Source: Psammoneis japonica
Lineage: Eukaryota
Assembly (NCBI GenBank): GCA_008632985.1
Contig: QPGO01000044.1
Location: 124,001-188,000, forward strand
DNA: 64,000 nt
Reading direction: 5' to 3'
Shown piece after piece: positions 1 to 56,191 of this stretch. Each line of letters opens with the position of its first letter. The stretch's first letter is position 1. A program made the translations under genes and the position numbers. The notes under the pieces were generated by a model that had not been told where the DNA came from, did no database searches, and saw nothing but the letters and a program-made list of their open reading frames with translations.

Positions 1-600
1 CTGCATCCCCGGTGTGTTGGTGAGCACTGCCCATGCTGGACATTGGCAGATCAAGTCCCTGGGTGCTCAGGTCTGTTTGATGCCTGCTCCTTCAGTTCCC
101 AATGATTTTTTGGCTGTGTTGAAATCTCTCCCCAGATGGGAGTCATTGCTGTTTGATGACTTGACTTTGCACCTGTTGGCGTTTGAGATTGCAGACTTGC
201 TGGTTCATCATCGGGCCTCAGTGGGTGGCGATGGATTGGCTCTGAATTTTTGGGGCACATTTGGTTGGACACTCACAGTTGATGGGAATCCATTGGTTGA
301 TTGTGCTGGACTGATGTTTGGTTTTCACCCATTGTCTCATTGCGCTGAAGTGCACAGACTTTTGTCCTTTCTCTGTTTCCTGTTTTGATTGATGGAGTGT
401 TGTTGCAGAACATTTGCCAAAGGTGCAGACATGCATGGTGACAACTCATCACCAGTTCGCAATGTCTCCAATTTTCAGGTGTCACGTTCATCAGAGGCCC
501 GTTTCCATGAATTGTCTTGTGGTCTGACCAATGGACATTGTTGCAGATGGCGTTTGTGAGCACCCATACATGCATTTATTTGTGATTGAATTGTGGCCAT
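1..600 (+). pseudogene. Decayed non-LTR retrotransposon (LINE, diatom Ambal-like) fragment, RNase H N-terminal region
   Basis: ORF 14..388 contains GGDGLALNFWGTFGWTL...CAG..FG..PLSHCAEVH.LLSFL, resembling the SDGS...GTFGW...G...SYRAE.YG.LS motif of LINE RNase H with Y>H/C changes. Clade assigned from motif recall only. Confidence 0.6.
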
Positions 601-2960
601 TTAAAACACGAATCACACCAATTTGCCACAAACAACAGTCGTGATTGAAAACAAACAAATGTCACACCAACCAATGGATGGGCAGCTTGTCAAACAGTGT
701 GGGGAAAGCCACACAATGACAACATTTAAGTGGGTGGTCATTCATTGAGTGAATTCCTCTTGTGTGGCTTATGACTTTATAAGCTGCACAAGGGAAGTTT
801 GTGAGCTGCATGACGCAATGATTCAACAACCTGCTTTGTGCAGCTCACAACTTTATGAGCTGCAAAGGGGAGTTCACAAGCTGCACAAAGCAATGCATTG
901 TGTGCTGCATGATGACAATCGATCAATTGCTCAACTCTTTGTTTGCCACAGCGACATGCACGCAATTTTTTTTTTGGCATGCAGCAAAACGTGGCCACCA
1001 TCAACAACACAAAAATGGAACGTCACCGTTCCAAGTCATTGCAACAGATGGCACCCCCATGCCATGCAGGGTGATCGTCAATGCGGCAAGGTGCATTGTG
1101 ACAGCTTGGTTTGGTTTGTTGTTGCCTTGGCGTTGTTTTTTCACGTCTCATCTTACCTGCTGTCGTGTCGGCATTTCTTGCATGACAACAGGTGCGACCA
1201 ACCAACATTGACAGAAATGGCATCATCATTTTCAGCATCTCACTGGCAGAATCTGGTGGGATGGCAAACAAATTGGTGAGAATGCAACACAGTGCTGTTG
1301 TTCTGTTGCATCAGAGTGTCCTTTTTCCCATTTCACATTCCCTCAGCTTGCTCTTGCTCTTTGTGCTGCTGTTTTTTTTTCTTTTCAGTGCAAAACAACC
1401 ATCTTTTGCGGTGTTGGCAACATGAGCATCAGCAATGTCATGGACATCATGGACATCTCCATGCTTGCGTTCAGCTCCGATGATGCATCCATGGAGGAAG
1501 CCAATTTGGAGTCCGGCGTTGCTCCCTTGGCCTCCAGACAATTGAAGCACCCAAGAAATTGCAAAATAAAAAAAGAGTGAGCAAAGATGATGCCCTTCCT
1601 CAAAACAACACAGGAAAAGACCACATGACGGCTGCAACAGCCAATGCCAGATTTTGCCACCAAACCTTTTCCCACCAACAATGCCAATGCATTGCATGCC
1701 ACATTTTGCTCTGACAAGCACACCCATGAAAAGAGACAGGTGACGATGTTCAAGTCCCAGGTGACGCACAAAAGGACAATCAATTTTGAACACAAATTGT
1801 GCATCTGTCGTGTGTGGAGCAATTGCATGTAAAACACTTAAAGGGAGGAGTTTTTGCAGATGTTTAGAGTGTGAACATTTAATTGGTTTTTTCATTGGCA
1901 TGCAAGTCCTCATGGGACATGTGTCACAAACTCCCTCAGTGGACTCAATGCTGATTTCAAGATTGTGTGCCAGTGCATTGCATGCAGAGATTTGGATGTA
2001 GGAAGAACCCATGCCACAGAGCATTGTAGAAAAATTGTTCATGTTGACTTCAAAACAATGGCAACAATTTTGCCGAAAATCATCCGTTGTGTTGCGATTC
2101 CATTTGTTGCAACAAATGACATGGATTGCACAAAAACAATGACATCGCAACACTCACATGAGTCTTGTCAGTGTTGCAAAACATTTGCATTTGGATGAAT
2201 CCATGCTTTTGGTGGTGACAGCTTGATCGCAAGTTGGGGACCGTGTGAACATCGTGCAAATGTTGTTTTTGTGCACGATTTGGTTCACGTGTGGCTGGAA
2301 CACATCAGGTGAAACAAAGTCCAAAAATGGGTGAAAACTCCTTTTGTGATTTTGTTGTCATCCACAATCTTGAATCTCACAACTTCAACAGCTGATGCTG
2401 CTTTGCCACCAATTTTTTCCCTCCAACAATGCTGACACATGACATGCTTCATTGCACTCAAAAAAGTGCACACATGAGAAAAGAGAGATGAGAGAGAAAA
2501 AGCCCGAAAATGGACAAACACCCCTTCTGAGATTTTTTGCTGATGTTCAGGCTCTTTTCTCAAAACTGTCACATTTCAATTTGTTTGTTCTTGACAGATT
2601 GAAGAGTGTGGAATCTGTCATTCAGACAATGAAGACTTTTCATGCAAATGTCGTTTTTGTGCATGTGCTTTGGTTCGTGCGCAGCTGGAACATGTCAAAA
2701 GGGGAGACAAGGGGCAACTCAAGGGCGCGGAGCATTCATTGTGGCAATCTGCAATCTGCCACTTTTGGAAAAGTCAGGGAACATCTGGCAAATGAGGTCG
2801 TTTTTGTCTCTGAACATTTGGGTGACTGCATGGGTTGCTCGCTGGCTGCAGCGGCACCCACGCAACTTCTTCTTGCAAAGATGTTCATGTGGCTTGGGTT
2901 CCCTCCACCTCTGAACATCAAGACAGCCAACTGAAGCCAAGGGAGGTTGCTCTCTGGCGA

Positions 2961-3122
2961 GGCATTGATTGAAACTTCCAAGGAAGGGAGTGTCTTTCAA
3001 TGCTGTGAGCCCAAAATCTTAGCCACAGCAGGGCTGCAGGTGAGGCATCGATTGAAACTTCCAAGGAAGAGAGTGTCTTTCAATGCTGTGAGCCCAAAAT
3101 CTCAGCCACAACAGGGCTGCAC
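2961..3122. repeat. Tandem duplication, ~83-bp unit x2
   Basis: ggcat(t/c)gattgaaacttccaaggaag(g/a)gagtgtctttcaatgctgtgagcccaaaatct(t/c)agccaca(g/a)cagggctgca occurs at ~2961 and ~3044. Confidence 0.85.
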
Positions 3123-3149
3123 TGCCCTCAAAAGCTGGTGCATGTGGGT

Positions 3150-3500
3150 TGACTGCTCTTGGCATCATGACTGCCACCACCACTGTCAGTTTGACTGCCA
3201 CCATTGCAACTGCTGCCATTGAAACTGGCGCTGTTGTGACTGCTGCCATTTCAACCATTGCTGTTGTGACTGCTGCTGTTTGCCGCTGGCGCCATTGCGG
3301 CTGCTGCCATTTGGACTGCACTGCAACTGCTGCCACTGCTGCAGCCACTGCTGTTGCAACTGCCACTGTGGCAGCCACCATTGTTGGAATTGTGGTTGTT
3401 GCAACAGCCATCATTGTGGCTGCTGGTGCCATTTGGACTTCTGTTGTTGTGACCACTGTTGTCACAGGGCTGGCTGTGAGGAGCTGCAACTGCACCACTG
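3150..3500 (-). repeat. Low-complexity triplet region, probably a decayed Gly/Asn/Ser/(Tyr)-rich coding tract
   Basis: Minus-strand reading DNSGHNNRSPNGTSSHNDGCCNNHNSNNGGCHSGSCNSSGCSSG looks like a G/N/S/Y tract if C/H are read as former Y. Confidence 0.45.
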
Positions 3501-4293
3501 TTTAGACTGTCAAAACGCTCTGCCCACACCAGGTGAAAAATTGCCAACAAATGATGCCCGTTGGTTCGAACAAAATGTCGCGCACCTCCAACAAATGTCT
3601 GTGGGTTCGAATCCAGGGACGTGCATCCAATCAGCATGGTGAAATGAATTCAAGAAGTTTGCACCCACACAAAATGTTCAAGTGGCTGTCTAAAGTGCAG
3701 CTTCTACAATGTAAGAATGCTCAAGTTGGACAACAACAAAATTGTGATCATGGGTTTTTATCTGCCAAACCGCCATCAGCTCCAGCTTGCCGACCTTGGC
3801 ACAGCTCACCGTGTGGGGCCTCCCCCTTGTCACCCAAGTCGTGATCCCCCCCGCTTGCTTTCCATGGCTGCCTGAAATCATTCTGTGCAAATCTTCCCAT
3901 CAACCAAGTTGCTCACTCATGATGTTGCATTTGATCTCCATGACCGGCTCCTTGAAGAACTTGGCTCTCAGCAACCATCCCCTCCCTTGCTCTTCCTTGG
4001 TGCCCTGCATCGTCTCCTCCTGTGCCCTCCTTTGCCAGGCGTGAGTTGCTTGGCACAAAGCACTTGAGCCATTTTGCACACTTTCTCTTCTTTGCAACAG
4101 CCTCCTTTTGCATGAGCCCCTTGTTGGCGATGCTCTCAAGCTCGCTCGCAACACCCATCAGAGATGAGAGTCCCTCTCTCGTCTTGTCCCGCCCCTGTGT
4201 CATTGGAAACAGCCATGCTGCTGGTGTGAGTTTTGAATCTTGAGCAACATCAATTCTCCAACAAAACTTGTGGCAAAGCTTGTCTTTGTGCAG

Positions 4294-4569
4294 TGACAGG
4301 ATTTGAACAGGATTTGGGTGCGCGCAAAGCATCGCGCGCTGTTTAGTTTACCGCGCACAGTTTTGTGTGCTTTAGTTCCGCGCGTTCACGCGCGATGTAG
4401 TTTGCTTTCGAGCCACAAGGCTCACAAGGACAATAACAGCAGCCCGATTGTGCCAACTTACACGTCTTTCGGCTCCTGCAACGGTCTCTGAGCGGAGACT
4501 CATCTGCTGTTTAGACAGCAGCAAGGAGTCATTGTTTGAATTCTTGCCATTTGCCTTCAATTTCTGTCA
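4294..4569 (+). repeat. 5' LTR
   Basis: Direct repeat of 11087-11362 with TG...CA ends; 15 mismatches by manual alignment, no indels. Confidence 0.97.
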
Positions 4570-5508
4570 GATTGACAGTCTTGCTCATTGTCAACCCATT
4601 GAGCAACCGCCATCGTCGTCGTTGATTTACCAACGACGCCACCTTCAATCCCACGTGGACCTCCATGTGTGTTCTACATACATCGGCAAGTCTACGCGCA
4701 TTCAATGCCAGGGCATCGGCAGGAAGTTAACGTCACCGTCAAGTCTCCTTGCCGCTGGACATCTGGATTGATTGTGCTGCCTTTGATCGCTGAAGACATG
4801 TGTTCAACGGTCACATCCAAGTCTGTCCTTGATCAACATCCCTTGACACACCTGTTCCTTGGTTAACGGTCAAGAACCCCGCACATTCAAGGATCTTAGT
4901 CGCTGAAGACACACGCATGTGCACATGTCTTCACGGCCAAGAACCTTTACCCACTCTTAGGACCACGGTTTTGCTGCCACTCCACAAGCACACCGAGTCC
5001 ATTGCACCTGATCTGCCCGGACTGCTGGTGCTCTGCAGTTCCACCAGGTCCACGAGGACGACTGTGAGAGCAAGTGGCCGTGATTGCAGCCTGCGTTGGG
5101 GCGAGGGTGCTTTCCCGCGTTTGTTCGTTCGTCCACAGCGCCTGACGCCTGCGTCAACTGGCCAGCCTGATCGGGAAATCCAACCGACATAAAACAAGAA
5201 CGGTTCGGGGGTCTTGTCCACCTCCAGTCAGCTCACCTGCAGGGGTTTACAACCCGCTGCTCCGCTCGCAAGCAACCCAAAGCGCCGCTGGCTGTGGGTT
5301 CGGACGTGCCTGCACAACTCTACGGACCGGATAGGAAGTTTAGCACTTGACAACGAACGGGACAGCAAAGCCCGGCGACTTCTGATTTTAAGACAGTTCA
5401 AGATTTCAAGTCAAGTCTGTTTCAAGTCAAGTCCATTCTCACCCAAGTTTCGAGTCTGCCTTCGCTTCCCAACCAGAATTGATTGTCCTGACACCACTTT
5501 TGTCTGCC

Positions 5509-8500
5509 ATGGTTCTCACTCGTCAGCAACAAACCGATGGTTTCGAGCACGTTGTTGGAACCGTGCGTGCCCAAGGTGCTGGGAGTCCTCTTCGTTTGGC
5601 TTTGGCCCAAGACGGCACGGACTCGCATCAGGAACCATTCACGTTCACACCGTCCCAAATCGACTCGCTTGAGTGCGACAACGGCACTAATGTGATCCCT
5701 TTGCCCCGTGGTTATAAGAACATGTTAGCAGCACTGGTTGGTCTGTACATTGTCAAAGCACACAAAGGTCTTGACGTTGCCAACGACTCCTCTTTGTTCA
5801 CGCATGACGAGTTCCTTGCCTGCCGCCTCAGCCCCGACTGCATGTCTTCTGTGTCCATCGGCAGCTCACCCCTTGCACCTCCGCATGTCACCAACCCAAC
5901 CAAGGCACGCGACCCGGTGCGGGACTTCAAGTGAGGCATCAAGCGTGATCCCACCGCTTTCACGGCTCTCAAATCCGACAAGCAGTGGCACACTTGGCAC
6001 ACCTCACTTGTGGCACAAGCCCGTGCCCAAGACGTCAAGTGCATTCTAGACTCGTCGTACAAACCGACCAGCCCCGAAGACAAACTGCTCTTTGCTGAAC
6101 AGCAAAAGCACATGTTCGCCGTCTTTGAACGCATCCTTCTCACTGACAAGGGCAAGGCTCTCATTCGCGAAAATGTGGGGTCTTCTGACGCACAGACCGT
6201 CCACCGCGCCTTGTCTGAGTGCGCGCTTGCCTCCACCCGCGCATCTGTCGAGTCCTCCACCCTGCTCACGCACCTTGCCACCGCACGTCTTGGTGATGGC
6301 ACTTGGAAAGGTCCGACCCACGGGTTCATCCTTCATTGGCAAGATCAGTTGCGCAAGTGCGAGGCACTCATCCCGGCCAGTGACCACTTCTCTGAAGGAC
6401 AGAAGCGCGTCATGCTCGAGAATGCCGTGCACCCTGTCAAGGAACTCCGTGCTGTCAAGAACCAAGCTGATCAGCATCGCACGCAGAGTGGCAAGAGCCT
6501 CACACACGATCAATGCTGTGGCTTGCTCCTCTCCGCAGCAGCTCAGTACGACAGCACTTTTCAACCCAAGACGACACCTCGAGCTCCCCGATGCGCCACA
6601 CACGCACACGACGTCTGCTCCGAGGAACCGTCCGACGATGTGTTCTACGACATTGACAGCAACATTGACGTCCTTCAGGCCAATGCTGCCTGCACCCGCG
6701 GTCCCAGCCTCACCGGTGACCAATGGAGACGTCTCCCTCCCGACCACCAACGGATCTGGGATTCGTTGCCCGATTCCTCCAAGGCGATCATCCTTGAGCA
6801 TTCTCGTCTGCCTCCCCGCAACCCGCGAGCCAGTGACTGCCATGAGTCTGTTACGGCCAACCTTCACGACCAACGCCTTGGGAGTGACGGTGATGTCAAC
6901 TTGTCCAACACGACTCCTGCTGACTCTGGTGACTCCGCTCCAAATGTGGACGCCACTTCGGATGATCCCATCCTGGCGCACCTCACCAAGCGCAAGCCAC
7001 TGCCACCCGGTGATCTGCAACGTCTGTTGTCTCCTAACCAAGCCCCCAATGCCAGTCGACCGGGGCCATCCGCCGCTTCCTCTACCCCGCCAGCTTCTGC
7101 AGATGACACAGAACTTAACGGCCGCACTCACCGCCGCGTTGACAACCACAATGTCATTTGCTCTGCCTCTGCTCATCGCTCCACACGCACTGGTGCTCTA
7201 GTCGATCGTGGGGCCAACGGCGGCATTGCTGGCGACGACGTTTTCGTCATTGCACGCACCTCTCGCCAAGTCGATGTTCAGGGCATTGACGATCATCAAT
7301 TGGTGGACATTCCTGTTGTCACCGCTGGTGCCGTCATTGAGACCCAGCGTGGTCCCGTCATCGCCATCCTCCATCAGTGTGCATGCACGGGCAAGGGCAA
7401 GACCATCCATTCCTGCGGCCAGCTCGAATGGCACAAACAGGATGTCAACGATCGCTCTGTCAAGGTGCCCAACGGCTTGCAACGCATTGCCACTCCTGAT
7501 GGCTGTGTCATCCCCATTGACATCAAGGCCGGCCTGCCTTGTGTTGCCATGCGACCTTACACTGACGCCGAATGGGGACACATGGGACCCTTCCGTCCTC
7601 GATCACTCTGTCACTGATGACAACCAGTGGTGCAACGCGATCTCTGACCCACAGGACGATCCCACTGCCAACCTGTTTGACGAACACGGCAACTGCCGTC
7701 ATCGTGTCATTGTCAACGAGACCATCATGTCCGCTTCCTTGTCTGCCGATCACGCGTCCGCCCTCGATGATCACCTCATTCCGAACAACGACGTGTTCTG
7801 CGAGTGTCATCCACATGCGATTGACCCCAAGGGCGATGACGTTCCGCCTCCGGAGCGCACTGTGCAGCCCAAGGACCCCCCCTTCGAGTCTCTTCGGCCT
7901 TGCTTTGGCTTCCTACCTGCCGATGCGGTCCGTTGTGCTTTTGACTGCACCACGCCCGCATGCCCGCCGGTGCACACCTTAGGAAGGCCTGCAAATCACC
8001 CAACCCCGCCCTCAATGTGCACCGCCGCAACGAGCCTGTCGCCACTGACACCGTTTGTGCCGACACCCCGGCCGTCAACTCTGGTTGCACCAGCGCCCAA
8101 CTGTTTGTTGGCACCGAGTCTACCGTCACTGACGTCTGCGGCACTAAGACGGACAAAGAGTTTGTCAACACACTCGAGGATCAGATCCGTGAACGTGGTG
8201 CCCCATCCAAACTCATTAGCGACCGTGCTCAAGTTGAGATCAGCAACAAAGTGCTCGGGATCCTGCGCGCCCTCTTCATCTCCAGCTGGCAAAGTGAGCC
8301 TCACCAGCAACACCAAAACTTTACCGAGCGTCGACACCAGCCCGTGAAGCGCATGGCAAACACTGTCATGGATCGTTTTGGTTCGCCCGCCCACACATGG
8401 CTGCTGGCGCTCATGCACGTGTGCTTCACACTCAACCATGCAGCGTCCCCACGTCTCCACTGGCGCACGCCCCTCGAGACTCTCACTGGCTCCACCCCGG

Positions 8501-11139: not shown

Positions 11140-11362
11140 TTTGCCGCGCACAGTTTTGTGTGCTTTAGTTCCGCGCGTTCACGCGCGATGTAGTTTGCTT
11201 TCGAGCCACAAGGCTCACAAGGATGATGACAGTAGCCCGATTATGCCGACTTGCACGTCTTTCGGCTCCTGTGACGGTCTCTGAGCGGAGACTCATCTGC
11301 TGTTTAGACAGCAGTGAGGAGTCATTGTTTGAATTCTTGCCATTTGCCTTCAATTTCTGTCA
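11087..11362 (+). repeat. 3' LTR
   Basis: Copy of the 5' LTR, preceded by the PPT and followed by the TSD. Confidence 0.97.
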
Positions 11363-11927
11363 TGCAGCACACCTGTTTTGTCCGGTCATTTTGCGCCAAG
11401 CATCAGTGCGGCGCTCAGAAAAGCTTCTTCTTCGACACAAGAACTCTTGCCTTGATGATGTCTCTGCCAGACTTTTGATCATCAGCCATCCACTTGCTTG
11501 GATTGGTCTGTCTCTGAGGCACAGTTGCAACAATTCTTTGTTGGTTTTTGTGTCATGTGTTTGCCTGCACTTGCCATGGCCATGCACTGCTTTGCACACC
11601 GTCACAAGCCGGCCATCCCTTTTTTGTGTTGTCTCTTGAGTCTCAAAACTTGTCCTTGTGCAGCACACCTGTTTTGTTGCACAAAGTGTGAGTGTGATGC
11701 TCAGAAAAGCCTCTTCTTTGACACAATCTCTTACCTTGATGATGTCTCTGCCAGCCTTTTGATCATCAGCCATCCACTTGCTTGGACTGGTCTGTCTCTG
11801 AGGCACAGTTGCAACAATTCATTGTTGGTTTTTGTGTCATGTGTTTGCCTGCACTTGCCATGACCGCGCACTGCTTTGCACACCATCACAAGCTGGCCAT
11901 CCCTTTTTTGTGTTGTCTCTTGAGTCT
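11363..11927. repeat. Tandem duplication (~284-bp period); the copia is inserted in the first unit
   Basis: 11451-11643 matches 11735-11927. The empty site cttgtc(t/c)ttgtgcag|cacacctgttttg is intact at ~11649-11676 and split by the copia at 4293/11363. Confidence 0.85.
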
Positions 11928-30840: not shown

Positions 30841-30849
30841 CACATTGCC

Positions 30850-34998: not shown

Positions 34999-35359
34999 TC
35001 TTGCTGCTTGTCTGTAGAGAAATTTTATGACAACAATTACTCTCGACGTTTACGAGCGGAAAAGTGAGAAAGATAAAAGCAAGATCACATCATGGAGCAC
35101 CTCCTACACTATTTTTTACCTTGACCAAATTTTCCATCCAACGTCCAACTGATCAATATTTCGACATTTTTATGCAAATATTCGGAGCCATATTTCCTAT
35201 CAACAAGGGCTTATGGGATTTTGGTGGCGATTTGAGACTGAACGACAGCGAAATTTCTCGCGGCTAACGCAAACACTGCAAATTCCATAACCCAACGCTC
35301 TACCATGAGTACCGTACACAGAGTATTTTAGCACAGTAGATAGGAACCTATCCCCAAGG

Positions 35360-35862
35360 TGCGATGTTCGCTTCACCCGACGCCATGCCAGAGAGACAAG
35401 AAAGTGCAAACAAACCTGCCGGAAAGAGCACGGTCCATCTCGCCATGATGACCATTCTTGCTGCCAATCTCTAGAGAAAAATGTGTGACAATGCTCTCCA
35501 CGTTTACGAGCAGAAAAGTGAGGAGGTAAAAACAAGATCGCGTTTGGCCAATGTCCAACGTCCAACGTCCCAATGACATTTGCCACCAATGCGGAATGCG
35601 GAGCCGAATGATTATGTGCTGTCATTTCAACAAGTTCTTGTGGTTTTTGGTGGCGATTTGAGATTGAGCGCCGGCCAAATTTCTCGGCTCCAACGGCAGG
35701 AAACGAAAAATGACAGGCCCTGTGCCATGATGTACTGTCCCACAGCAGTTTATGCCAACTACGGAGCTGAATTATAACATGAACAAGTTCTCACGGTTGT
35801 TGGTGGCGATTTGAGACTGAGCGCCGGCCAAATTTCTCGTCTCTTTTGGCAGGAAACGAAAA
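35360..35862 (-). repeat. Local duplication of the metalloprotease 5' end and upstream motif
   Basis: 35360-35541 matches 34903-35087. The motif ttggtggcgatttgaga(c/t)tga...aaatttctcg recurs at ~35221, 35648 and 35801. Confidence 0.85.
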
Positions 35863-38800: not shown

Positions 38801-39459
38801 TTTTGTCTTGTCAGACAGTCAACCTTTTTCTAAAAAATCACCCCACCATGCAGCGTGTCAATGAGAAACAAATGTGTGAGCTCTTTCACATCAAACAGCA
38901 AACAGTGCACTCTCAACAAGTGCAGAAGCAGTGCTCACTTGCGCCAGCTCCTAAAACCAGCTTTGCATTTTGACTTGGTCACTTCCACCCAAGCAAGATC
39001 CAAGTGATGCTAAAAAGCAATGTGGCAGCATGATGGGTGGAAAAGTCAGTGAGTCAATTGCACGAAACAATGACAACAGCCAACAAATCTCTCATTTTCA
39101 CTGGTGCACTGCCTTCAATGCTTCAACAGCAGAAAGGTGTGAATGTTGCATCCCCATGTGGGCTTCTTGCAGCTGCCCATTGGTTTTGCATGCAGGGACT
39201 CTTCGACACATCATGATCACCAGCACCATGCTGCACCAGATCTGCTGCTGCTGACACTTGCAACACTTCTCCACAAAATTGTGCTGCTTTTGAAAACTGT
39301 TCTGCACAGTGGCATCCATCCACAAGCAAGTGACACTCTCACGAATTGTTTTTCAACAGCTGCTGGTGGTCATGGAGAATGAAATCTCCGCCACTGTTTT
39401 CCCATCATTCTTTGCTGTCTTGGTCTTGCAACAAGGCAGGGTCTGCCACACCACAAAAA

Positions 39460-39845
39460 CTGAGCTGCAGAAATGGCCAATCAAAGCAGTCCAAGCATGC
39501 AAGCTCCAAAAATGCATGACCAAAGGACACACATTGCACAAACTCACTGCAGCTGACATGAGCCCGCTCACTGTCATTGCTGTTTGTGCTTTGTGACACT
39601 TTCATTGATGTGGCCATTTCCTCCTTCATTGTCCAACACACCTTGTGCCATTTTGCAGCTGCAAAAATGGCCAGTCAAAGCAGTCCAAGCATGTGAGCTC
39701 AAAAAATGCATGGCCAAAGGACACACATTTTTTGTCTGCCCATGTGTCTTGACTTTTGCCCCTCTGGCATGCAGCTCTCAATCCATGGCTGTTGGAGTTG
39801 CACAAACCCACTGCAGCCAACATGAGCCCACTCACTGTCATTGCC
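39460..39845. repeat. Diverged tandem duplication
   Basis: agctgca(g/a)aaatggcca(a/g)tcaaagcagtccaagcatg...aaaggacacacatt at ~39463 and ~39657. Confidence 0.75.
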
Positions 39846-40721
39846 ATTTGCACAATTCTGCCTTGGTTTCATGGCCACACCCTCTGCTGTTTTTTTTGCA
39901 CAAGCTCTGGTGCAGATGTTGCCTTTCTCTGATGGCGTGACAACAGTTCTCAACTGCCTGTTCAGACCTGCTCTTTTGTCAACATGCCTTCATTCCATGA
40001 TCATCAGCAATCTCATGCAGTGGAAAATGATTGGCATCAAGCCCTTTTGGTTCAATTGCTTGGCACTCTTCTCAGCATTTTTTGCTCTCATGTGCAAAGT
40101 TTCCACACAAGTTTCAGCACAAATTCTGCGTGTTCTGCAAGTCATTTCAGATGGACAATGCACCAAACTGCCAATTGCTCTCTCTTCACATCACCTCTCA
40201 AGTGCTGTCAACAACCCCCCTTCTGACCATTGTCCATTTGAGTTTCCTGCATTACATGGTGAACAATCTTCTGTCATTGCTGTTTTCAGAAGTTTGAAGA
40301 TGAGACCAACTCAGTGTGCAACAGCCATTCTTTCGTGTGCTGACAAGTCCACACAAGTTTCAGTGCATTTTCTGCATGTCTTGAAGGTCATTTTGGATGA
40401 TTCAATTGCCAAGTGCCAACTGCTCTTGGTCCATGCCTCTCCAGCATCAATGACTCCCCTTCTGCCCATTGTCTGCTTGAGTTCTCTGCTCCATGCTGTG
40501 AACAATGCTCCATTGTTGCTGCTCCCAGAAGTGTGAATTTGAGCCCACTTCAGCACAAGTTGGTCATCAATTTTGTGCCCCATTCCTTCTCATGTTGAAA
40601 CTCTTCCAGACTGCCTGTTTTGCCTTTTTTGCTAGACTTGATCCCAGGAAGAAGGCCCGATTGAAGCATTGAGCGCTTTCCTTTTGAAGTCTCATTGTGC
40701 TGCTCCTGTTTTTGTTGTTGT

Positions 40722-42295
40722 CATTGCCAGAAACCAAGGAAGGTGCCTGTTTTGCACGTGAAAGAAATTGAAAAGAAAAGACATCCTTGAGAAAACCAAT
40801 GCAAAACAGAATTGCATGTGGAAGGAAACACTTGCTGGCATCACACAAGCAGGTTCCATCTTTGCAAACCCTTCTCATTTTGTGCTTGGTTTTCAAATTG
40901 TGCACCCATTTTTTGTCGTCATCAAAACAGTCAGCCCTCTGATCATTCATTTGGCAGTGCAGCATTGTGAGCTGCTTGGAGCACCTGGGTCATGTGCCGG
41001 GTTGCTGCTTTGGACAACGCTTCCTGAATTCACACTGCAACATGGCATTGATTTTTGCTTCATGCACCTCCCGGTCGACAACGGCATTGCCTTTCATTGT
41101 CATCATGTCCTTGATGTCACAGAGTTTGTCTCTGAGGAAGCCCTTGACTTTTTTCCTCCTCAGAACCAACTTCATTTGACAGGCATGTGACAAGAAAGCT
41201 GTTGACAAAAATGCGCCACTCCTTTTGGGCAGTGACTTCACAAAAGATCTGCAAGAACCAACAATGGTGGAGGTTGTGACGGTGCTCCTCTTCTTTTTGT
41301 GTCTCTCCTGGCAGGGTGCAGAAATGAAGAGCATCCTCCAAATTTCAATGCCAAAGAAGGCACTTGCCTTTGTTCCGGTGGGATTTCTTCATGGACCAGC
41401 CATGAGTCATGATGCAGGACCAAACATCATTGGGATGTCCAAGAGTTTTCCTGACAATGTTGTTTGTGTGGATGACTTCAGTGACACAGGGAATGCAATG
41501 AAGCTTCAGCTCATGGCAAAGAAAGGGAAGTGCAAGGAATTCTGGAGAGGGTGGCCAATTCGTTCTCTCTGCAAACTGCTTTTTGGATGCACGCATGGCA
41601 GCAGTGCTCTTGAGCTTGGGCCTGAAAAGCTCCATTCCAAAACCATCAGTAAAATGTTCTTTGTCATCAAAATTGACATCATCAGCAAAGAGACAAACAA
41701 GGGATTGGGGTTGACCTTGTCTGCTCATGGGACAAAGTTGTTGACTGCCATGGCCTGAAATCAGCAGAGGTGGTTCATGTGGAAAGTGCGCGAATCATGA
41801 CAGCACACACTCTGGTCAAATTGATTTTGGGGAGAGGGTGCACTGTTGTGAAATGCGTGGAAAATGGTTTGTAGAAAAAGCACCAAAAATGTGGCAGAGA
41901 ATCGTGCACAGAATTCTGGGAAAAAGTGAGATGCAAAGAGGAAGTGTGCACGCGAAGATGACTGGGGCATAGACACAACACCAGGACACATGGTGATGCA
42001 CGAACTGGGGGTGTAAAAAGCAAACACCATGTTGAAATGTGAAGCATCAAAAGCAAAGATGATCATTGACACAACTTCATTTCCGCATCACAAAAGCTTT
42101 TTAAAATGCAAGGTGCCTTGGGACACACAACCAAAATGTAAATGGATGACAAAATTCACAATGAAACACAAGAATGTCTTGCATTGTGAAAGCACCGTTC
42201 AAGTTGGAACATCAAATTTAAAAGAGCAAGAAAACCAAAATTCAATGTCAAAATAAATTGCAACAACAGTGGCAACCACTGTGTTGCAGCCTCTC
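40722..42295. repeat. Dispersed repeat, copy 2 of 28331-30170
   Basis: Direct-orientation homology. ORFs 40768.. and 28138.. share KRKDILEKTNA.QNC..KE.LAGITQAGSIFANPSHF. Confidence 0.85.
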
Positions 42296-44190
42296 ATGGT
42301 GAAGGGTCGCCAAGACAAAACATCACCCATTGAATCATTGTCCCTGGCAGCCAAGTTGAATGTCCAAGCTGACAGACTGGCAGGACAATGCCAAGGCCAC
42401 TTTTCCAGTGACACCCTTTCCTCACCTTGAATTCCCCACTGCAGAGCCAACCTGGTCATTCAGGGAGGTGCGGTCTTGTCCAAGTGCAAGTCCACTGTCT
42501 GACATGAAGCATCTGTTGTGGCCCTCATTGGCTGCATGAAAGAGAAGTGCAGTTGGTCCAATGAAGTGTGTGATTTTGTCAACTGGGATGTGCGTGCTAA
42601 ACTGATGTCTCAAAATGTCCATTGGAAAGTTGGCATCAACAAGCTGGTGCAGGATCTTCTCATGACAAACAAAACTGTCCATCAATGCAACCCCACCCAT
42701 CCTGATTGTTGCATGCACTGTCAAGATCCAATGGAAGACAGAGACCACATTCTCTGCCATCCACACAATGAAGCTTGGTGCCAAAAATTTTAAAGGGCCT
42801 GCACAAGAAGTGCGACAATGTTCGCACATCTCTGTTCTTACATGATTTGCTTGTGTCAGCCACCAAGTCATGGTGCTGAGAAGAGTTGCTCTGTTCCAAT
42901 GACCTTTGCTGCAGTGTGATGTCAGTTTTTCAATCTCAGGAGCACATTGGGTGGTGCCAGTTGTTCAATGGGCATTTCTCACACTTGTGGAACATGACAC
43001 AAACTTCTTGTGTGTTGGCTGGCGGCACTTGTCAGACCCTCTCTGAACAGGAGCAGCAATTGGACTGGGCTGCTGCTGTCAGCAACCACATTTGGGAGCA
43101 GTGGTGGGACCTGTGGGACAAACACAATGATGCAGTGCATGGGCATCATGATGTGGAAACAAGGAAGTCTTCTTGGCACAGAGATGCAGAAGCAGAAGTG
43201 AAAGCCATCCATTCATGATCAGATGATTGCTGGAGACAAGGCACATCCATTGGACTTGGTTGAAGAACACTTGGCTCATTTGACACATCATCTTTGCAAC
43301 TGGTTGGTCATGGTTAAACCCATGTTCAAGTCAAGCATCAGAGAAGCAAAACATTTTGCTGCTGGAGGCACAAGAGCCATTGCAAGTTAAGCTCATTCAC
43401 AATCTCCTGCCCACCAACAAGACAGTCCACAGATGCAACTCTGTTTGACCACACCAGTGTCTGTGCTGTGAGCATCCGATGGAAGACAGAGATCACATGC
43501 TCCAATGTCCACACAACAAAGCCTGGTGCAGAAAGTTCCTGCAAGGTTTGCAGTGTCATTGCAACCAGATCAACACCATGCCCACACTTCATGACTTTTC
43601 ATTGGATTCTCTTCAAGCATGATTCAATGACAAGATGGTGCATCCCGTGGAGTTGGGCTGCTGCTGCAGAGCCCTGTGGCATGCTCAATCAGATGCAGGA
43701 TGCTGACAAGTGTTCAGTGGACGGCACTCTGTTTTTTGGAATGAGGCCCAGTCTCTGGATGTTTGTGTGTCTTGGGCATCCTTTGCAAGCACCAAGAAGA
43801 GAACAAACAGCCACCAAATTGGGCAGTGCAGGTGGGGTCGTTCACATGGAAACAATGGTGGAATCTGTGGGAAGAGCACAATCATTGTGCACACAGACAT
43901 GATGCAGACTCTAGGAAGTCATCTCAGCAAAAAAAAGTTGAAGCTGAATTGACAGCAATGTGTGCAACAAATGCCAGGAACATTCAGCCAAAGACCAAGG
44001 TGTTCTGCTCAACTCAGCAGAACAGCATCAAGCCTTTTCAACAATGCACGTGCAAAATTGGACCTCAATGGTCCGGCCCAGACTCAAAAAAAATCTCAAA
44101 GAAGCCAAGAAGTTGGTGCTTTGCAGCACACGCACCATCACCAGTTGCTTCCGTTGGGTGTCTCCTCAGGGAGATGCCGATTCAGACTGA
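42296..44190 (+). pseudogene. Two decayed LINE C-terminal fragments (RNase H end and zinc-knuckle region)
   Basis: VKGRQD...LSLAAKLNVQADRLAG, C..C...EDRDHIL, Q.HIGW.QLFNG, WEQWWDLWDKHN.AVHG. A second copy from ~43390 has HNLLPTNK, EDRDHMLQC and WKQWWNLWEEHN. Confidence 0.75.
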
Positions 44191-47100
44191 TTGCATTGAC
44201 TTCTGCCGCACCCCCAGCAGGGTGTGCCGGAGGTGTGGGCTGGCTGGCACCGGTGTTGCTGGGCAAAGGTGCAGTGGCACTTTAAGTTGGGTTTGATTTT
44301 TCTTTTGGCACAGCATCGCCCTTGGGTGATGCCAATCTCCTTGGCAAATTGCTGCACACTCCTGCCACACTGTCAGTGTGCTGGCAGTGTGGGTCAGCTT
44401 GTTGCCAGAGTTGCAGGGTGGAAGTGCAGCAGCACTTTAAATGCAGATTTTTGGTTTTGTTTTGTCACCACCCTTGCTCAGCATGGTCAGATGATCTCAC
44501 CAAAGACCTGTCCAAGTGAACAAAAGACAGCAACCACCAAATTGTTCTCACCACTGGGGCAACATCAACAAGGGTGTTCCACCCAAAGAAATCTCTGATG
44601 CATTTGAAGCCACGCAACTGCAAAAGCTGCTGATCAATCAGTGCAAAGAGGACAAGCTCCCATCATCTCTTGAACCAGGCGCATCAGGAACAGTGCAGGG
44701 CATGGCAGTCACGGGAAAGGCAACCACGGCGTTTTCATTCAGAACAGAAGCTGCGGCAGGCACTGGAGCGTGAGAAACAAAATGTCAACAAACAAGCTCT
44801 AATTTTGGCAGTCATGGGCACACTACGGCCACATAAACAACATTGCCTGTTGTGCTAGAGGAATTGGTAAATGAATAAAGTGGTGACGCATCAGGGGAAG
44901 GTGATGGAGACGAACATTTTAAAACCATCATGGTCCACTTATGTTGTTTTATTGGTGCGACTTGTCTTGACGCGTGCTTTTTTGTTGGTTTCGCGGTGCT
45001 CGCGAACACTCTAGAGTATGCGTATTCAAGCAAAGATAAGTCTTGTATGTATGATGCGGTTTATATTTTTATTCAAATCTGAAAAGGTTGGGTAATGATA
45101 ATGTCGTTTGCAATCTTCAGGACATGATAAATCTAAGTGCATAATGCACTGAGACTGCGTCTGGCCGTGGGGAGTGGGGGGTGGGGAGGAGGGGTCGGGA
45201 AAATCCGAGAACCTGATGGCCGACAGACGTGGTGAGCACGTGGTGAGCGCTCCACAGTGGTTCAAAGCGGCATTAGCTTCGTAGAAATAATTTTTTTGTA
45301 CCAGCGTAGAACTGTACGCATGTGTCTGGTACACAAAAATCATGCCACATCAACCATTTTCTCCAATCTTCGGCAATGGCGGCGTTCGTCGGTTCGTAGC
45401 TATTGCGCTGCTGAAACCATGTCAATTGTCATCAAACCTATGGCACGTTACTCGTCACCCTCTTCTTAATTCATGTGTTCCTTTGAAACTACGTATTCTT
45501 TAGCCACAATCCAGACAATCAATAACATCAACACAAGGTAAAAATCCAAAGCAGATGCGAGTTGCTTGTTGGTATTAACCTCGTATTTTTATCACAAACG
45601 CCCAACTAAACAGTATTTTGCTACTCTTTCACTTGATTTTCCAGGGTTTCATTGTTGACAAATACCATGCTCCAATCGTCCGAGGTGCGGTTCGCCGAGG
45701 CCATGAATGCATAAGCCGTGTGGAGAAATCTTTGGATTGAATAGATGTTGTGTCGACACCCCGATCCGTTTTCAAACATTTCCAAAGGAATGCAGCGAGT
45801 TTCTGAGTTTCTGTCTATTCTGTTGGTGACTCGAATAAGCAAGCTATGCTCGATACCACCTCGGTCTCCACCGAAAGGTACGATATCAAAACATCCGACT
45901 CCGCTTGTTTGTGTCGTGGATTCAGATGTCTTCTATAGACAGCTTTCGTTTGTGGCAACAGATGATTCCATAATGTAAAATAAGGCATAAGAATGCCCCA
46001 TTGACATCATACTAGCTTTTTCTTTTAGAGATAGGAAGGAGATCAATGGTAGCTCAGCAGCAAAGACATTGGATCGCGCTCGGTTTCAGAGCTGAGATCT
46101 GGGCTAAACCCATTTTACAAAGAGCTGCTCAAGTCATAACACAGTGCCACAACTTGTGGGCAAGTGACTAACACCAGAAGCGTTCAAAAGCAGTGTGGAA
46201 AGGATGAGACGATCATCGTCAATCCAGTTTGAGCTTACGAAGGATTATTTTACGATCGAGTGTTCGCTGTTTGACGTCATATACTGGAAAATTGCGTACA
46301 TTCTACACAGAAATCGGAACACCAATTTGAAGCTGCTACTTTGTGGTCAAAATAAGCTTGCCATTTGGAGCACACCTAAGGAGCGGTCACTCAAACGAGT
46401 AAAGTGAAGGGCTATGGAAGGTGCTCCAAATGCCACAGCAGTTTTGATGTTGGAATAACATCTTGAAACTTGCAGCTCTGTGTCGTTAAATGGGATTCCG
46501 TAAAATAGCCTTTCATGCATGTAAGCAAGGAATTTTAAAAATTTTCGAGGTCGATCGAGCTCCAGAATATTTATTGAGATTTTAGTCGTACAAGTCGAAG
46601 CTAATGCCACTTGCGCGTACTGTAGAACTGAACCACTGTGCGAGCAACACCGTGGTGAGCAATTAGTAGCTCTCAACTGCGTGGGAAATGCACGAAAAAT
46701 TGCTCCAGCTGTTTTCCAAAAAAAAGCAGATGTCGCCAGACGAACTTGTGCAAAACCACGGAGACATGTCTGACCCCAGTGAGCCAGAGGCATGACTGTG
46801 CTAGTCGCAACCTGATGTGGTGCACGTTTCTCTCCAGTGCTAACTCTGTCAATCATGGTTTTGATTGAGATTGATGGATTTTTGGACACAAGACTTCCAC
46901 TGACACTCGATGGACAAGAATGGAATCATCCGACTAAAGAGTTTGACCGTTTTTTCGGGGGTCGTTTTCTAGTTATACACAATATATTCATGCACATATA
47001 TATAAAATATATTTGACCGTTGCCTCATTTCACCGCACGAAAAATTCTGGTACAAAACCTACGAGAGAAACGAGTGAGGCAATCAACCCAGCCAGATCGA

Positions 47101-56152: not shown

Positions 56153-56191
56153 ATCGCATATTCTCAAACTCCGTAAAACAGCTCTCCTGCT

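Follow-up and report, generated by a model that had tools for sequence, protein, structure and literature searches.

Evidence for TpA>TpG/CpA hypermutation of transposon-rich blocks in the diatom Psammoneis japonica

Introduction

The closest described counterpart of the process reported here comes from Bigelowiella natans, in which integrated NCLDV and virophage DNA undergoes TpA>TpG/CpA hypermutation (Mettrop et al., bioRxiv 10.64898/2026.01.13.699255). In the sections of that preprint available, 230 of 231 de novo viral-region mutations are A>G or T>C, and each of these 230 falls on TpA; TpA-depleted coding sequences are enriched for RT and DDE domains, and an ADAT2-like deaminase is proposed as the enzyme. 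ADAR, ADAT2/3, TadA, and TadA-derived base editors are described in the same sections as yielding A>G with a 5' U/T preference, as is seen here. These A-to-I deaminases act naturally on RNA, in contrast to the chromosomal TE DNA considered here. TadA naturally targets U-A-C in an anticodon loop, and YAC was the favored context of early base editors; for ADAR the preferred 3' neighbor is G, not C or T. We know of no natural DNA adenine deaminase demonstrated to act on chromosomal TEs.

Fungal RIP resembles the present case in acting at the DNA level, with dinucleotide specificity and on both strands, upon repeated or mobile DNA, leaving composition-shifted blocks in which TEs are unrecognisable. 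However, available accounts describe RIP as a C>T process acting mostly on CpA, by which TpA arises and GC falls, so that its direction is the reverse of the one found here. In dinoflagellates, 5hmU formed by TET/JBP enzymes replaces T preferentially at TA and TC, is enriched in TEs, and helps to silence them (PMC11572971, in the part available). This mark shares with the present case the SAR lineage, the TA preference, and the TE enrichment; it differs in being a mark, for which the available part of that source (PMC11572971) describes no mutational signature or TpA depletion.

An initial annotation of a 64,000-nucleotide stretch of the Psammoneis japonica genome (here the window; contig QPGO01000044.1, positions 124,001 to 188,000) had proposed that an A:T>G:C mutator acts there on TpA in repeats. 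We followed up this proposal by computation.

Results

TpA is nearly absent from three blocks of the window, to which no strand is assigned. Block A (1..31151) holds 193 TpA (observed/expected ratio [o/e] 0.10; CG, 0.46; TG, 1.72; CA, 1.68), block B (35776..44799), made of old degenerate repeats, holds 33 (o/e 0.05; CG, 0.25; TG, 1.76; CA, 1.80), and block C (57517..59234) holds 3 (o/e 0.03; CG, 0.38; TG, 1.76; CA, 1.55), with dinucleotides counted over 1-31150, 35801-44800, and 57521-59230. Together the blocks (41,860 nt) contain 229 TpA against 1726 predicted from host density. Block C is a lone 1.7-kb insert with host genes on both sides. The host gene islands, also without strand, served as unaffected controls and were counted over 31151-35800, 44801-57520, and 59231-64000. 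The first (31152..35775; TpA o/e 0.55; CG, 0.90) lies between TE blocks and includes a Reprolysin_3-like ORF by Pfam match (33794-34411, minus strand). The second (44800..57516; TpA o/e 0.56; CG, 0.99) has kinesin, PAP2, and ankyrin Pfam matches, the top named match of the PAP2 protein being from Seminavis robusta at 50% identity, and the third (59231-64000) has a TpA o/e of 0.68. The reported near-absence of TpA from three blocks and its normal level in host genes were thus reproduced (0.03 to 0.10 versus 0.55 to 0.68), and low TA in the blocks coincided with high TG/CA (1.55 to 1.80).

The borders of the blocks are abrupt. No TpA occurs from 30476 to 31152 at the right border of block A, and 12 occur within the next 125 bases; similar steps lie at about 35775/35967, 44800, 57516/57966, and 59235, with no TpA in block C from 58162 to 59235. 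TpA loss stays within TE-rich blocks and spares genes that lie only a few tens of bases outside them. Most other A-containing dinucleotides are not lost with it: AA is not depleted (o/e 1.25 to 1.41 in blocks versus 1.11 to 1.23 in host DNA), GA is at 0.87 to 1.00 versus 1.03 to 1.07, and AT is at 0.90 in block A, 0.83 in block B, and 0.62 in block C, which spans just 1.7 kb, versus 0.90 to 0.92 in host DNA. The process is near saturation in the old blocks. CpG is also low in most TA-poor sequence (o/e 0.25 to 0.46), and therefore part of the TG/CA excess is ordinary CpG decay. The initial annotation had not recorded this depletion. In the old blocks CpG decay also gives CA|TG doubles, and the two sources are inseparable site by site.

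Block A consists of old, degenerate repeats into which a young copia has inserted. Summed contig depth over the copia flanks is 550 to 930, against about 65 for single contigs, and hence these flanks are repeated in the genome. The element itself is a hypermutated and frameshifted copia-type LTR retrotransposon of 7,069 bp (4294..11362, plus strand; RVT_2, E value of 2.5e-28, from a scan separate from that of the ORFs described below). When searched by tblastn with intact homologues of 1845 to 1859 aa, it matched in three frames (5509-7584, 7556-7954, and 7948-11049), with at least two frameshifts. Its 276-nt LTRs, TGACAG...CTGTCA (5' LTR, 4294..4569; 3' LTR, 11087..11362; both plus strand), are bounded by the target site duplication TGCAG just before (4289-4293) and just after (11363-11367), and a contig that joins 4293 to 11372 across the copia represents the empty site in paralogous copies without the element.

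The LTR pair (2 x 276 nt) dates the mutations. The two copies differ at 15 nt in 11 sites, every one of them YpR (4 CA|TG doubles, 5 TA paired with TG or CA, and 2 CA|CG), while 0 of 132 non-YpR positions differ. Because the LTRs differ only at YpR sites, TpA mutation took place at the DNA level and after insertion. The 5' LTR carries 5 CA and 1 TG outcomes, and the 3' LTR carries 7 TG and 0 CA. Two events fall on 21 CpG sites, compared with at least 13 at TpA sites; the TpA rate is far above that of other bases and, within this element, exceeds that of CpG decay roughly 10-fold.

We give next to no credence to the idea that the TG/CA excess stems from CpG methylation decay alone, with the TpA deficit a compositional accident. 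The low CpG of the blocks agrees with it, as does the fact that CG>TG/CA makes up 14 of the 40 private differences best supported in the window copia. However, the young copia retains near-normal CpG (o/e 0.75 to 0.94) although its TpA is already at 0.11 to 0.28, the LTRs share 19 intact CpG and only 4 TpA, and CpG decay can neither remove TpA nor make Tyr into Cys or His. As sole cause it is refuted. Decay of 5mC, known from methylated TEs, is present in the same blocks with the same products (TG and CA) and remains as a second, slower process.

Comparison with homologues gave the direction of change. At 39 Tyr columns conserved among 22 full-length homologues, the window copia has Cys (TGY) in 19, His (CAY) in 9, Tyr in 8, and Phe in 3; Tyr is retained in 8/39 columns, compared with 615/671 for other residues. 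Four copia peptides that had been quoted for replacement of Tyr by Cys or His are all present (9526-11001, plus strand), and 28/39 Tyr columns are Cys or His. Polarised over 710 columns conserved in the same homologues, the spectrum comprises 87 differences: 39 are single-step TA>TG (29) or TA>CA (10), and the rest are CpG type (9), other transitions (9), transversions (16), and multistep changes (14). The predominance of TA>TG/CA over other transitions (39 versus 9, with 9 CpG type) and the YpR-only LTR differences agree with the proposed A:T>G:C mutator at TpA. In the pol region YpR is balanced in mass (24.6% versus 24.9% in 22 relatives), with TpA 3.9 points lower and TG+CA+CG 3.6 points higher. 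The hypermutated copies lie 4 to 9 GC points over the 0.48 median of related loci; by our estimate about +4.5 points can come from TpA loss by itself (some 320 lost TpA in 7,076 nt), which partly explains their composition.

A few related elements from metagenomes show the same loss. The median TpA o/e of 76 related copia loci is 0.69, and thus freedom from TA is not native to the family. Of these loci, three are TA-poor (o/e 0.13, 0.27, and 0.31) and carry Tyr>Cys/His changes relative to P0129 (counts of 17/24, 19/26, and 24/42), compared with no Tyr>Cys and 0 to 4 Tyr>His in each of seven TA-normal loci. Two of the TA-poor loci, L035 and L031, share 94.5% identity across 1723 nt, and 46 of their 73 difference sites are CA|TG (20), TA|CA (14), or TA|TG (12), with 97 CpG common to both. 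The same damage recurs in all three TA-poor loci.

Base support was assessed at the contig level, with Logan contigs, probably from the source sample, aligned to the window. Comparison with other copies covered 40 of 652 variable places, those with near-complete agreement among the other copies; at 14 of them the window copy carries a private CpG>TpG/CpA change, and one (11491) is a clean site with CA in the window and TA in the others. Clean TpA sites are presumably few because TpA sites are heterogeneous among copies and so ranked low. That a modified base at TpA was misread as G or C by long-read base callers is very unlikely. Base support does come from contigs rather than raw reads, but a systematic context error would match in both LTRs, where 9 TpA-derived sites disagree, and the Tyr>Cys/His damage and TpA loss recur in three unrelated metagenome contigs that come from other assemblies. 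Several private window sites (e.g., 6144, 6592, and 10084) carry a total depth minus other-letter depth of about 60 to 70, equal to one single-copy contig, and transversions and indels also degrade the old blocks.

The same copies bear on whether the TEs are natively TA-poor through selection against UpA/TpA, such as escape from a TA-cutting nuclease, with Cys and His as the normal residues. TA-free sequence has few stop codons, and long ORFs persist in it; in addition, 8323 and 9027 are TA in the window and TG or CA in nearly all other copies. However, the conserved residue at 8323 is Ala (GCN), so the TA of the window is a private G>A change there. The Tyr content of the copia is 0.8%, compared with 4.2 +/- 0.5% in 120 homologues (minimum, 3.3%), the related loci have the TpA levels given above, the LTRs diverged after insertion at YpR sites only, and the copia has its frameshifts. 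Native absence of TA with Cys/His at these sites is therefore not what we found, and we regard this explanation as highly improbable.

Other sequences in the blocks are affected as well. Two copies of an unclassified repeat family, each found by self-BLAST to the other (28433..30168 and 40760..42294, both plus strand), are 92% identical over 509 nt and 78% over 1034 nt, with 45 CA|TG doubles; 10 repeat pairs within TA-poor blocks (2,789 aligned nt) have 62 such doubles, compared with 0 in four host pairs (629 nt). At the edge of block A, two fragments of an ankyrin-gene paralogue lie in tandem (30869..31185, plus strand) and are mutated relative to the host gene (54313-54503, minus strand), with 8 TA>TG/CA and 20 CG>TG/CA over 312 aligned nt, while the host copy has kept its TpA. 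Non-TE sequence within a block is thus mutated too, and the host gene copy is not. RIP, in contrast, needs duplicated DNA and mutates both copies, although the repeat shared with the host gene is only 178 nt long.

Assignment of the affected DNA to TE classes was less complete than first reported. A Pfam search of 277 stop-free ORFs from the TA-poor blocks (127 plus 150/161) gave no significant match to TE domains, and the block B ORF at 39826-40533 had 0 relatives among 1.84 billion representatives. The statement that LTR, LINE, and DNA elements are all affected holds for the copia; the sole hint of a LINE is a subthreshold zf-RVT match in block B (42503-42790; E value of 0.009, 17.1 bits versus a cutoff of 27.5). 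The peptides attributed to a Plavaka element with Tyr replaced by Cys or His exist (22111-22134 and 23780-23821), but no Pfam family or homologue was found to back the Plavaka identity or the Tyr ancestry of these residues.

The bases around TpA set the rate. Survival per base relative to host DNA is 0.71 for TTAA (0.86 to 0.96 after YpR normalisation), 0.41 for CTAA, 0.02 for ATAC, and 0/68 for ATAT (flank heterogeneity chi-square, 176.6; 9 df), and the trend recurs in L035 and L031. TTAA is essentially immune, CTAA/TTAG are slow, and ATAT, ATAC/GTAT, and GTAC are erased. The strict TpA specificity first claimed therefore needs qualifying, since the flanks govern the rate. The single-strand rule that fits best is A after T and before C or T, with G intermediate and A refractory. 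Mass balance in the old blocks favors this 3'-neighbor model in CYRA, GYRA, and CYRC but not in AYRG, the three metagenome loci run opposite to it in AYRA and CYRA, and polarised xTAA sites are CA in 14 cases versus TG in 6; the strand assignment of the rule is tentative.

Both strands are affected, as had been claimed, since TG and CA outcomes are alike common (3277 versus 3318 in block A). This balance bears on RNA-level A-to-I editing of retrotransposon transcripts by ADAR- or ADAT-like enzymes, fixed by reverse transcription, in which CA would be the antisense A>G. Such editing typically prefers a 5' U (10.64898/2026.01.13.699255, sections available), and coding-strand TG exceeds CA at Tyr codons (19 versus 9). 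However, edits in a single template for both LTRs would be shared, and 11 sites differ; the TG/CA ratio in the pol region is 0.87, compared with 0.98 +/- 0.13 in relatives; and the ankyrin gene fragment is mutated too. We find RNA editing scarcely credible as the source.

Discussion

We conclude, with a probability of about 85%, that a TpA-directed T:A->C:G (A:T>G:C) process operates at the DNA level and after insertion, confined to TE blocks of the Psammoneis japonica window. This figure applies to the process itself; its enzyme and any defense role lie outside it. The T:A pair of 5'-TA-3' would become C:G, giving TpG or CpA depending on the strand struck, and the action would follow integration, in transposon-derived DNA, with adjoining genes spared. 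Neither RIP, with its opposite direction, nor CpG decay alone, which cannot remove TpA, nor retroelement RNA editing, given that the LTRs differ, accounts for the pattern, as the initial annotation had argued.

As agent, we lean, at somewhat less than even odds, toward an ADAT2/TadA-type polynucleotide adenine deaminase, with inosine read as G; the U-A-C and YAC preferences of TadA and early base editors resemble the T-A-Y preference suggested here. Mispairing of oxidised T can lead to T>C, and TET/JBP-type oxidation of thymine at TpA is a distinctly less probable agent; the remaining weight falls on something else. As previously noted, no enzyme is visible within the 64-kb window, nor is a modification, small RNA, or chromatin mark, and the window contains no A-to-I deaminase gene.

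Erosion of TpA could instead be a passive by-product of silent chromatin, through a mutagenic mark or repair defect (5hmU/5fU, another TpA-directed modification, or error-prone Pol eta-type patch repair), with no mutator enzyme evolved. This alternative concerns cause and purpose, not existence, and overlaps the preferred reading. Mutation of the ankyrin fragment indicates that TE identity is not required, and the accompanying CpG decay suggests that the blocks are methylated and silent. Pol eta mutates preferentially at WA, of which AA is one form, and yet AA is not depleted; spreading chromatin fits poorly with borders sharp to tens of bases and an intact 4.6-kb island between blocks. The dinoflagellate mark, with its TA and TC preference, most of its loci in TEs, and its aid to silencing (PMC11572971, part available), speaks for a by-product, but the spectrum equals that of the regulated, line-specific bursts described for B. 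natans (10.64898/2026.01.13.699255, sections available). On balance we consider a passive origin unlikely, though worth serious attention.

In our assessment, the TpA-directed process and the hypermutation seen in foreign DNA integrated in B. natans are the same phenomenon. In the available sections of the preprint, as here, A:T>G:C falls at TpA in both orientations, in foreign or mobile DNA only, with long-term TpA loss and CpA/TpG gain. The host there is a rhizarian, rather than a diatom (stramenopile), and the mutations arose de novo in mutation-accumulation lines, rather than being deduced from sequence. Depletion is mild in its NCLDV region (TpA 1.8-fold lower, rho 0.45), versus 0.03 to 0.10 here across tens of kilobases of TEs, and the main text, so far as available, gives no flanking-base rule such as that offered here. 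The suggestion that the system was undescribed is superseded by this 2026 preprint (10.64898/2026.01.13.699255). Our literature search found no report of TpA>TpG/CpA hypermutation in a diatom, and what appears to be new is only its occurrence in one. In P. japonica, a dedicated enzyme would lie behind the process, its targeting may proceed via small RNA, homology, or silent chromatin, and its role may be genome defense.

Distribution of TpA depletion

Dinucleotides were counted over the window in 1-kb steps and over the three blocks in which the initial annotation had found TpA to be nearly absent. Positions 1-31150 (block A), 35801-44800 (block B), and 57521-59230 (block C) contain 193, 33, and 3 TpA, respectively, or observed/expected (o/e) ratios of 0.10, 0.05, and 0.03, while the host islands at 31151-35800, 44801-57520, and 59231-64000 contain 183, 499, and 231 TpA (o/e of 0.55, 0.56, and 0.68). 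In total, 229 TpA were observed in 41,860 nt of TA-poor DNA versus 1726 expected at host density, so that the loss of TpA in the blocks, and its normal occurrence in host genes, is real and far beyond chance. TG and CA are enriched in the blocks (o/e of 1.55 to 1.80). AA and GA are unchanged in all three, as is AT except in the short block C, where it drops to 0.62. The edge of block A is sharp, with no TpA at 30477-31151 and 12 within the following 125 nt, and the other four block borders, near 35776, 44800, 57517, and 59235, show comparably abrupt steps. The depletion is thus confined to three sharp-edged blocks of integrated foreign or mobile DNA, of which a copia element is the sole positively identified transposable element (TE) and the remainder is repeated DNA as judged by contig depth, and host genes are spared.

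By domain search, the host islands encode a kinesin, a PAP2-type protein, an ankyrin-repeat protein, and a WD40 protein, among others. The best named relative of the PAP2-type protein is from the diatom Seminavis robusta (50% identity), and its best match overall has 67% identity, which makes a diatom the probable source of the window. Two repeats lie in TA-normal host DNA. A 12-nt tandem repeat at 33082-33316 (unit about GTCGGTCTCGGG) gives 13 overlapping 91-nt copies in register, and five copies of a unit of ∼340 nt (59 to 63% identity) at 31369-33120 adjoin a Reprolysin_3-like ORF and probably represent an internally repeated gene.

A copia element in block A

The element at 4294-11362 on the forward strand has the features of a Ty1/copia retrotransposon: LTRs of 276 nt (4294-4569 and 11087-11362) with ends TGACAG...CTGTCA, a 5-bp target site duplication (TGCAG), and an RVT_2 domain (Pfam, E = 2.5e-28). 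Neither an integrase nor a protease domain was detected by Pfam. The element is colinear with intact polyproteins of 1845 to 1859 aa, with 64 to 70% identity in the pol part, and is spread over three reading frames, which implies at least two frameshifts.

Its genomic setting was assessed with Logan contigs from three runs of one sample in one study, probably the source sample, in which 14,512 contigs match the stretch with a likeness of at least 80%. Summed contig depth, which is not a copy number, is 45,000 to 250,000 on the copia, compared to ∼550 to 930 on its flanks and ∼65 for single contigs. The copia family is very abundant in the probable source sample, and the flanks of the copia are themselves repeats. 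One contig joins position 4293 to position 11372 and represents the empty site in a paralogous copy.

Conversion of TpA after insertion

A retrotransposon inserts with two identical LTRs. Those of the copia give a gap-free alignment with 15 differing nt at 11 sites; all 15 differences are transitions, and each site lies inside a pyrimidine-purine dinucleotide (YpR: TA, TG, CA, or CG), while none of the 132 non-YpR positions differs. Four sites pair CA with TG, five pair TA with TG or CA, and two pair CA with CG. Only 4 TpA are intact in both LTRs, compared to 19 CpG. The ancestor of a CA/TG site could have been either TA or CG, but 19 of 21 CpG are untouched, which makes CpG decay insufficient and assigns the four sites to TpA. 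In the LTR pair, TpA sites therefore account for at least 13 conversions, the 21 CpG for 2, and the 132 non-YpR positions for none, a tally that gives relative rates only. All of these conversions occurred after insertion, so that neither native avoidance of TA nor editing of the RNA ahead of reverse transcription can be the main cause. Editing of the ADAR type would affect the sense strand only and leave the same edits in both LTRs, while the LTRs differ at 11 sites and CA and TG are both common. A practical consequence is that dating by LTR divergence fails here: the LTRs are 5.4% divergent, yet not one non-YpR position has changed.

The outcomes in the LTRs are strand coherent, with 5 CA and 1 TG in the 5′ LTR versus no CA and 7 TG in the 3′ LTR (Fisher P = 0.005). 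No such clustering was seen in a larger pair of related loci described below (18/21 versus 14/13, P = 0.8) or in a hand count of runs of Cys and His outcomes along the copia. Strand-coordinated clusters are consequently not claimed, and the coherence in the LTRs may have arisen by chance or from a local effect related to transcription. There is no global strand bias, the TG/CA ratio being 0.80 to 1.14 in hypermutated copies versus 0.98 ± 0.13 in 22 relatives.

Protein homologues give the direction of change independently of the LTRs. A search with the pol region scored 8000 candidates and returned 2418 proteins at E ≤ 0.001, the best 120 of which (up to 72% identity) contain 4.2 ± 0.5% Tyr (minimum 3.3), 1.1 ± 0.3% Cys (maximum 2.0), and 3.7 ± 0.4% His (maximum 4.9). 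The window copia protein contains 0.8% Tyr, 3.2% Cys, and 5.2% His. Its alignment with 22 homologues of at least 1700 aa contains 710 columns with a conservation of 80% or higher, and the window differed at 87 of these. At 39 conserved Tyr columns, the window has 19 Cys (TGY), 9 His (CAY), 8 Tyr, and 3 Phe, while Arg is retained at 49 of 52 columns, Trp at 22 of 22, and Gln at 19 of 19. A single TA step explains 39 of the 87 differences (29 TA>TG and 10 TA>CA), including Thr>Ala, Asn>Asp, and others in which the dinucleotide spans two codons; the rest are 9 CpG-type changes, 9 other transitions, 16 transversions, and 14 multistep changes. Using only the pol frame and 30 homologues of at least 1000 aa gave a like result (27 Tyr columns: 13 Cys, 5 His, 7 Tyr, and 2 Phe). 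Together with the dinucleotide counts, the Tyr>Cys and Tyr>His replacements show a change restricted to TpA with both TpG and CpA as products.

Mass balance agrees. The YpR total of the pol region is 24.6%, compared to 24.9% in the 22 relatives, with TpA lower by 3.9 points and TG, CA, and CG higher by 0.6, 1.6, and 1.4 points. The direction is opposite to that of fungal RIP, which changes C:G to T:A (mainly CpA>TpA), enriches TpA, and lowers GC content: here, TpA is depleted about tenfold, TG and CA are enriched, and hypermutated copia copies (the window element and three metagenome loci) have a GC content of 0.52 to 0.58 versus a median of 0.48 in related loci. By our estimate, this GC excess exceeds the ∼4.5 points attributable to TpA loss. 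Eight of the nine other transitions at conserved columns also run A:T>G:C, and a weaker A:T>G:C activity outside TpA is possible. The CpG share of the hypermutated copies is 1.1 to 1.7 times that of TA-normal relatives.

Replication in metagenome loci

A scan of metagenome contigs found 76 loci encoding related copia elements, with a median TpA o/e of 0.69, a GC content of 0.48, and a CpG o/e of 0.87, which indicates that the family is natively TA normal. With Tyr-rich homologues, TA-normal loci, and LTRs mutated after insertion, the alternative of active elements that are TA free by nature, which the initial annotation had named as fatal to its case, was not borne out. Three loci are themselves TA poor: L035 (1943 nt), L031 (1884 nt), and L001 (2759 nt), with TpA o/e values of 0.13, 0.27, and 0.31. 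Relative to an intact homologue (P0129), Tyr is replaced by Cys or His at 17 of 24, 19 of 26, and 24 of 42 positions, respectively, while seven TA-normal loci have no Tyr>Cys and 0 to 4 Tyr>His each. L035 and L031, from two assemblies, have 94.5% identity across 1723 nt. They differ at 73 sites (20 CA/TG, 14 TA/CA, 12 TA/TG, 8 CpG-type, 7 transversions, and 12 other transitions) and have 97 CpG but just 5 TpA in common. As judged from the LTRs, from 39 of the 87 conserved-column differences, and from 46 of these 73 sites, the changes are almost only A>G/T>C.

The three TA-poor contigs have ∼62% DNA identity to the window copia and so belong to another family, probably in another organism. Because they replicate the damage, a base-calling artifact of one assembly is unlikely, and their sequences indicate that the process is present in other organisms or samples. 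On the LTR, homologue, and related-locus evidence, the mutational origin proposed in the initial annotation was right.

Influence of flanking bases

Surviving TpA are not random by context (chi-square of 176.6, 9 df). Survival per base relative to host DNA is highest for TTAA (0.71), followed by CTAA/TTAG (0.41), CTAG (0.18), GTAA/TTAC (0.13), CTAC/GTAG (0.11), ATAA/TTAT (0.10), GTAC (0.05), ATAG/CTAT (0.04), and ATAC/GTAT (0.02), with none of 68 surviving for ATAT. When normalized by all YpR in matching flanks, survival of TTAA rises to 0.86, or 0.96 for the old blocks by themselves, compared to 0.006 for ATAC and GTAC. Using TA-normal relatives as the reference for L035 and L031 gave, on small counts, 1.03 for TTAA, 0.03 for ATAC, and 0.06 for GTAC. 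The claim of strict TpA specificity therefore stood in part: the change is confined to TpA, with AA and GA unchanged, but TTAA is spared. Error-prone repair is a poor fit because AA is spared, and UV photoproducts at TpA and Pol-eta WA hotspots were discounted, since the blocks show no depletion of TC, CC, or AA.

The two flanks act roughly independently, in the order A > G > C >> T on the 5′ side or, equivalently, T > C > G >> A on the 3′ side. By mass balance, TpA lost from CTAA and GTAA in the old blocks went wholly to CA and TpA lost from CTAC to TG, a pattern that suits an A protected before A and preferred before C or T; ATAG does not conform. Tyr codons that follow C became Cys in 10 cases versus His in 3, which contradicts a pure −2 rule (P = 0.0005), and polarized xTAA sites yielded 14 CA versus 6 TG. 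In the three metagenome loci, two contexts point opposite to the 3′-neighbor reading of the old blocks. From these sequence patterns, we favor T-A-(C/T > G >> A) as the putative determinant.

CpG decay and other repeats in the TA-poor blocks

CpG o/e is 0.25 to 0.46 in most of the TA-poor DNA, a point absent from the initial annotation; positions 4000-11000 are the exception, with near-normal CpG (0.75 to 0.94), a GC content of 0.56 to 0.58, and TpA of 0.11 to 0.28 in 1-kb counts. Half to three quarters of CpG has been lost from the old blocks, and both the depletion and the change of CpG to TpG or CpA expected of CpG decay were found. The window copia has also undergone this decay, since 14 of the best 40 of 652 variable places in the contig comparison are CG in nearly all other copies and TG or CA in the window copy. 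CpG decay is a second, co-occurring process, and it does not explain the loss of TpA.

Self-BLAST gave 27 repeat pairs, 17 of them at 75% identity or more. Ten pairs lie wholly in TA-poor blocks (2,789 aligned nt) and have 299 difference sites: 62 CA/TG doubles, for which a TpA or a CpG ancestor is possible and the sites are not separable, 14 TA paired with TG or CA, 55 CG paired with TG or CA, 100 transversions, and 68 other transitions. Four host repeat pairs (629 nt, 87 sites) have no CA/TG doubles. Block A carries at its edge a 178-nt piece of an ankyrin gene (31008-31185) and a second partial copy (30869-31000), which match the host gene at 54313-54503 on the reverse strand. Compared to that gene, which retains its TpA, the fragments have 8 TA>TG/CA and 20 CG>TG/CA sites in 312 aligned nt. 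Non-TE sequence was thus mutated inside the block while its short genic repeat partner was spared. CpG decay in the fragments, read from two mixed pairs, is one-sided (17 CG>CA versus 3 CG>TG), a local strand bias of the CpG process.

About 34 kb of TA-poor DNA outside the copia could not be assigned to any class by Pfam or homology searches. Searches with 127 ORFs of at least 110 aa and with 150 of 161 ORFs of 70 to 109 aa gave only subthreshold, chance-level Pfam matches and one zf-RVT hint. This hint, also below threshold, lies at 42503-42790 (E = 0.009), and a second degenerate copy of the Cys/His-rich motif follows 748 nt downstream at 43389-43537; the two may be remains of a non-LTR element, and the LINE named in the initial annotation is thus no more than a candidate. 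The ORF at 39826-40533 had no match among 1.84 billion representatives. A Plavaka (CACTA) transposon had been proposed at ∼22000-24300. No Plavaka or KDZ transposase domain, nor any Pfam family at E values up to 10, was found there, and its ORF at 23468-24208 had no homologue among longer proteins, so that the assignment was not upheld; degradation may account for the missing match. That ∼34 of 42 kb of TA-poor DNA is invisible to these searches is a problem for annotation. Moreover, TAA and TAG are gone from the TA-poor DNA, and this 65% of the window holds 128 of 159 stop-free ORFs of at least 110 aa, many of which overlap one another on the two strands; such inflated ORFs are a source of false gene calls.

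Candidate agents and relation to known systems

The sequences show a DNA-level change of T:A to C:G at TpA that acts after insertion on either strand, is confined to TE blocks, depends on the flanking bases, and proceeds faster than CpG decay. An adenine deaminase of the ADAT2/TadA kind, the natural target of which is U-A-C, would give the right product and recognize the right 5′ T, and we lean toward it at somewhat below even odds (roughly 45%). Oxidation of thymine at TpA with T>C mispairing is an unlikely agent by comparison. It has a precedent in the same supergroup, as in the available part of a 2024 study of dinoflagellates (PMC11572971) 5hmU replaces T preferentially in TA and TC, with most 5hmU loci in TEs. 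The sharp borders and an untouched gene island of 4.6 kb suggest that the target may be recognized by its sequence, through small RNA or homology, and not through spreading chromatin. That the hypermutation is a by-product of a silencing mark and not a dedicated defense is rather unlikely.

The signature had been presented as undescribed, which is wrong, as TpA hypermutation is known from one 2026 preprint (bioRxiv 10.64898/2026.01.13.699255). According to the accessible portion of that preprint, two integrated viral regions in mutation accumulation lines of the chlorarachniophyte Bigelowiella natans mutate at ∼1000 times the rate of the remaining genome. Of 231 single-nucleotide mutations in these regions, 230 are A>G or T>C, all on TpA. 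Reverse transcriptase and DDE domains are overrepresented among coding sequences depleted of TpA, and the authors suggest an ADAT2-like adenine deaminase as the agent and defense as its role. The same portion of text does not contain the words “diatom,” “flanking,” “trinucleotide,” or “context.” No report of TpA hypermutation in diatoms was found in the literature searched, which lay mostly outside subscription journals. The window records the same kind of process in a new lineage and adds the flank rule, near-saturating TE targets, and environmental replicates.

A broader proposal, which we offer tentatively as possible, is that a dedicated, sequence-guided DNA editor is common to at least two SAR lineages, the stramenopiles and rhizarians, and is maybe related to the TpA-directed marking of thymine in dinoflagellates. 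It would be a natural adenine deaminase or thymine oxidase of chromosomal DNA that inactivates integrated TEs and viruses at T-A-(C/T/G), but not T-A-A, with base-pair-sharp limits. If true, such an editor would be an ancient eukaryotic counterpart of RIP with the reverse polarity and would edit A:T to G:C naturally. As the adenine base editors now in use were evolved in the laboratory, a natural enzyme that makes this change in DNA would be directly relevant to biotechnology. For the biology of these algae, the finding would extend such hypermutation of foreign DNA at TpA, newly described in one rhizarian alga, to the diatoms, where the responsible enzyme could be sought by phylogenetic profiling across the many sequenced species.
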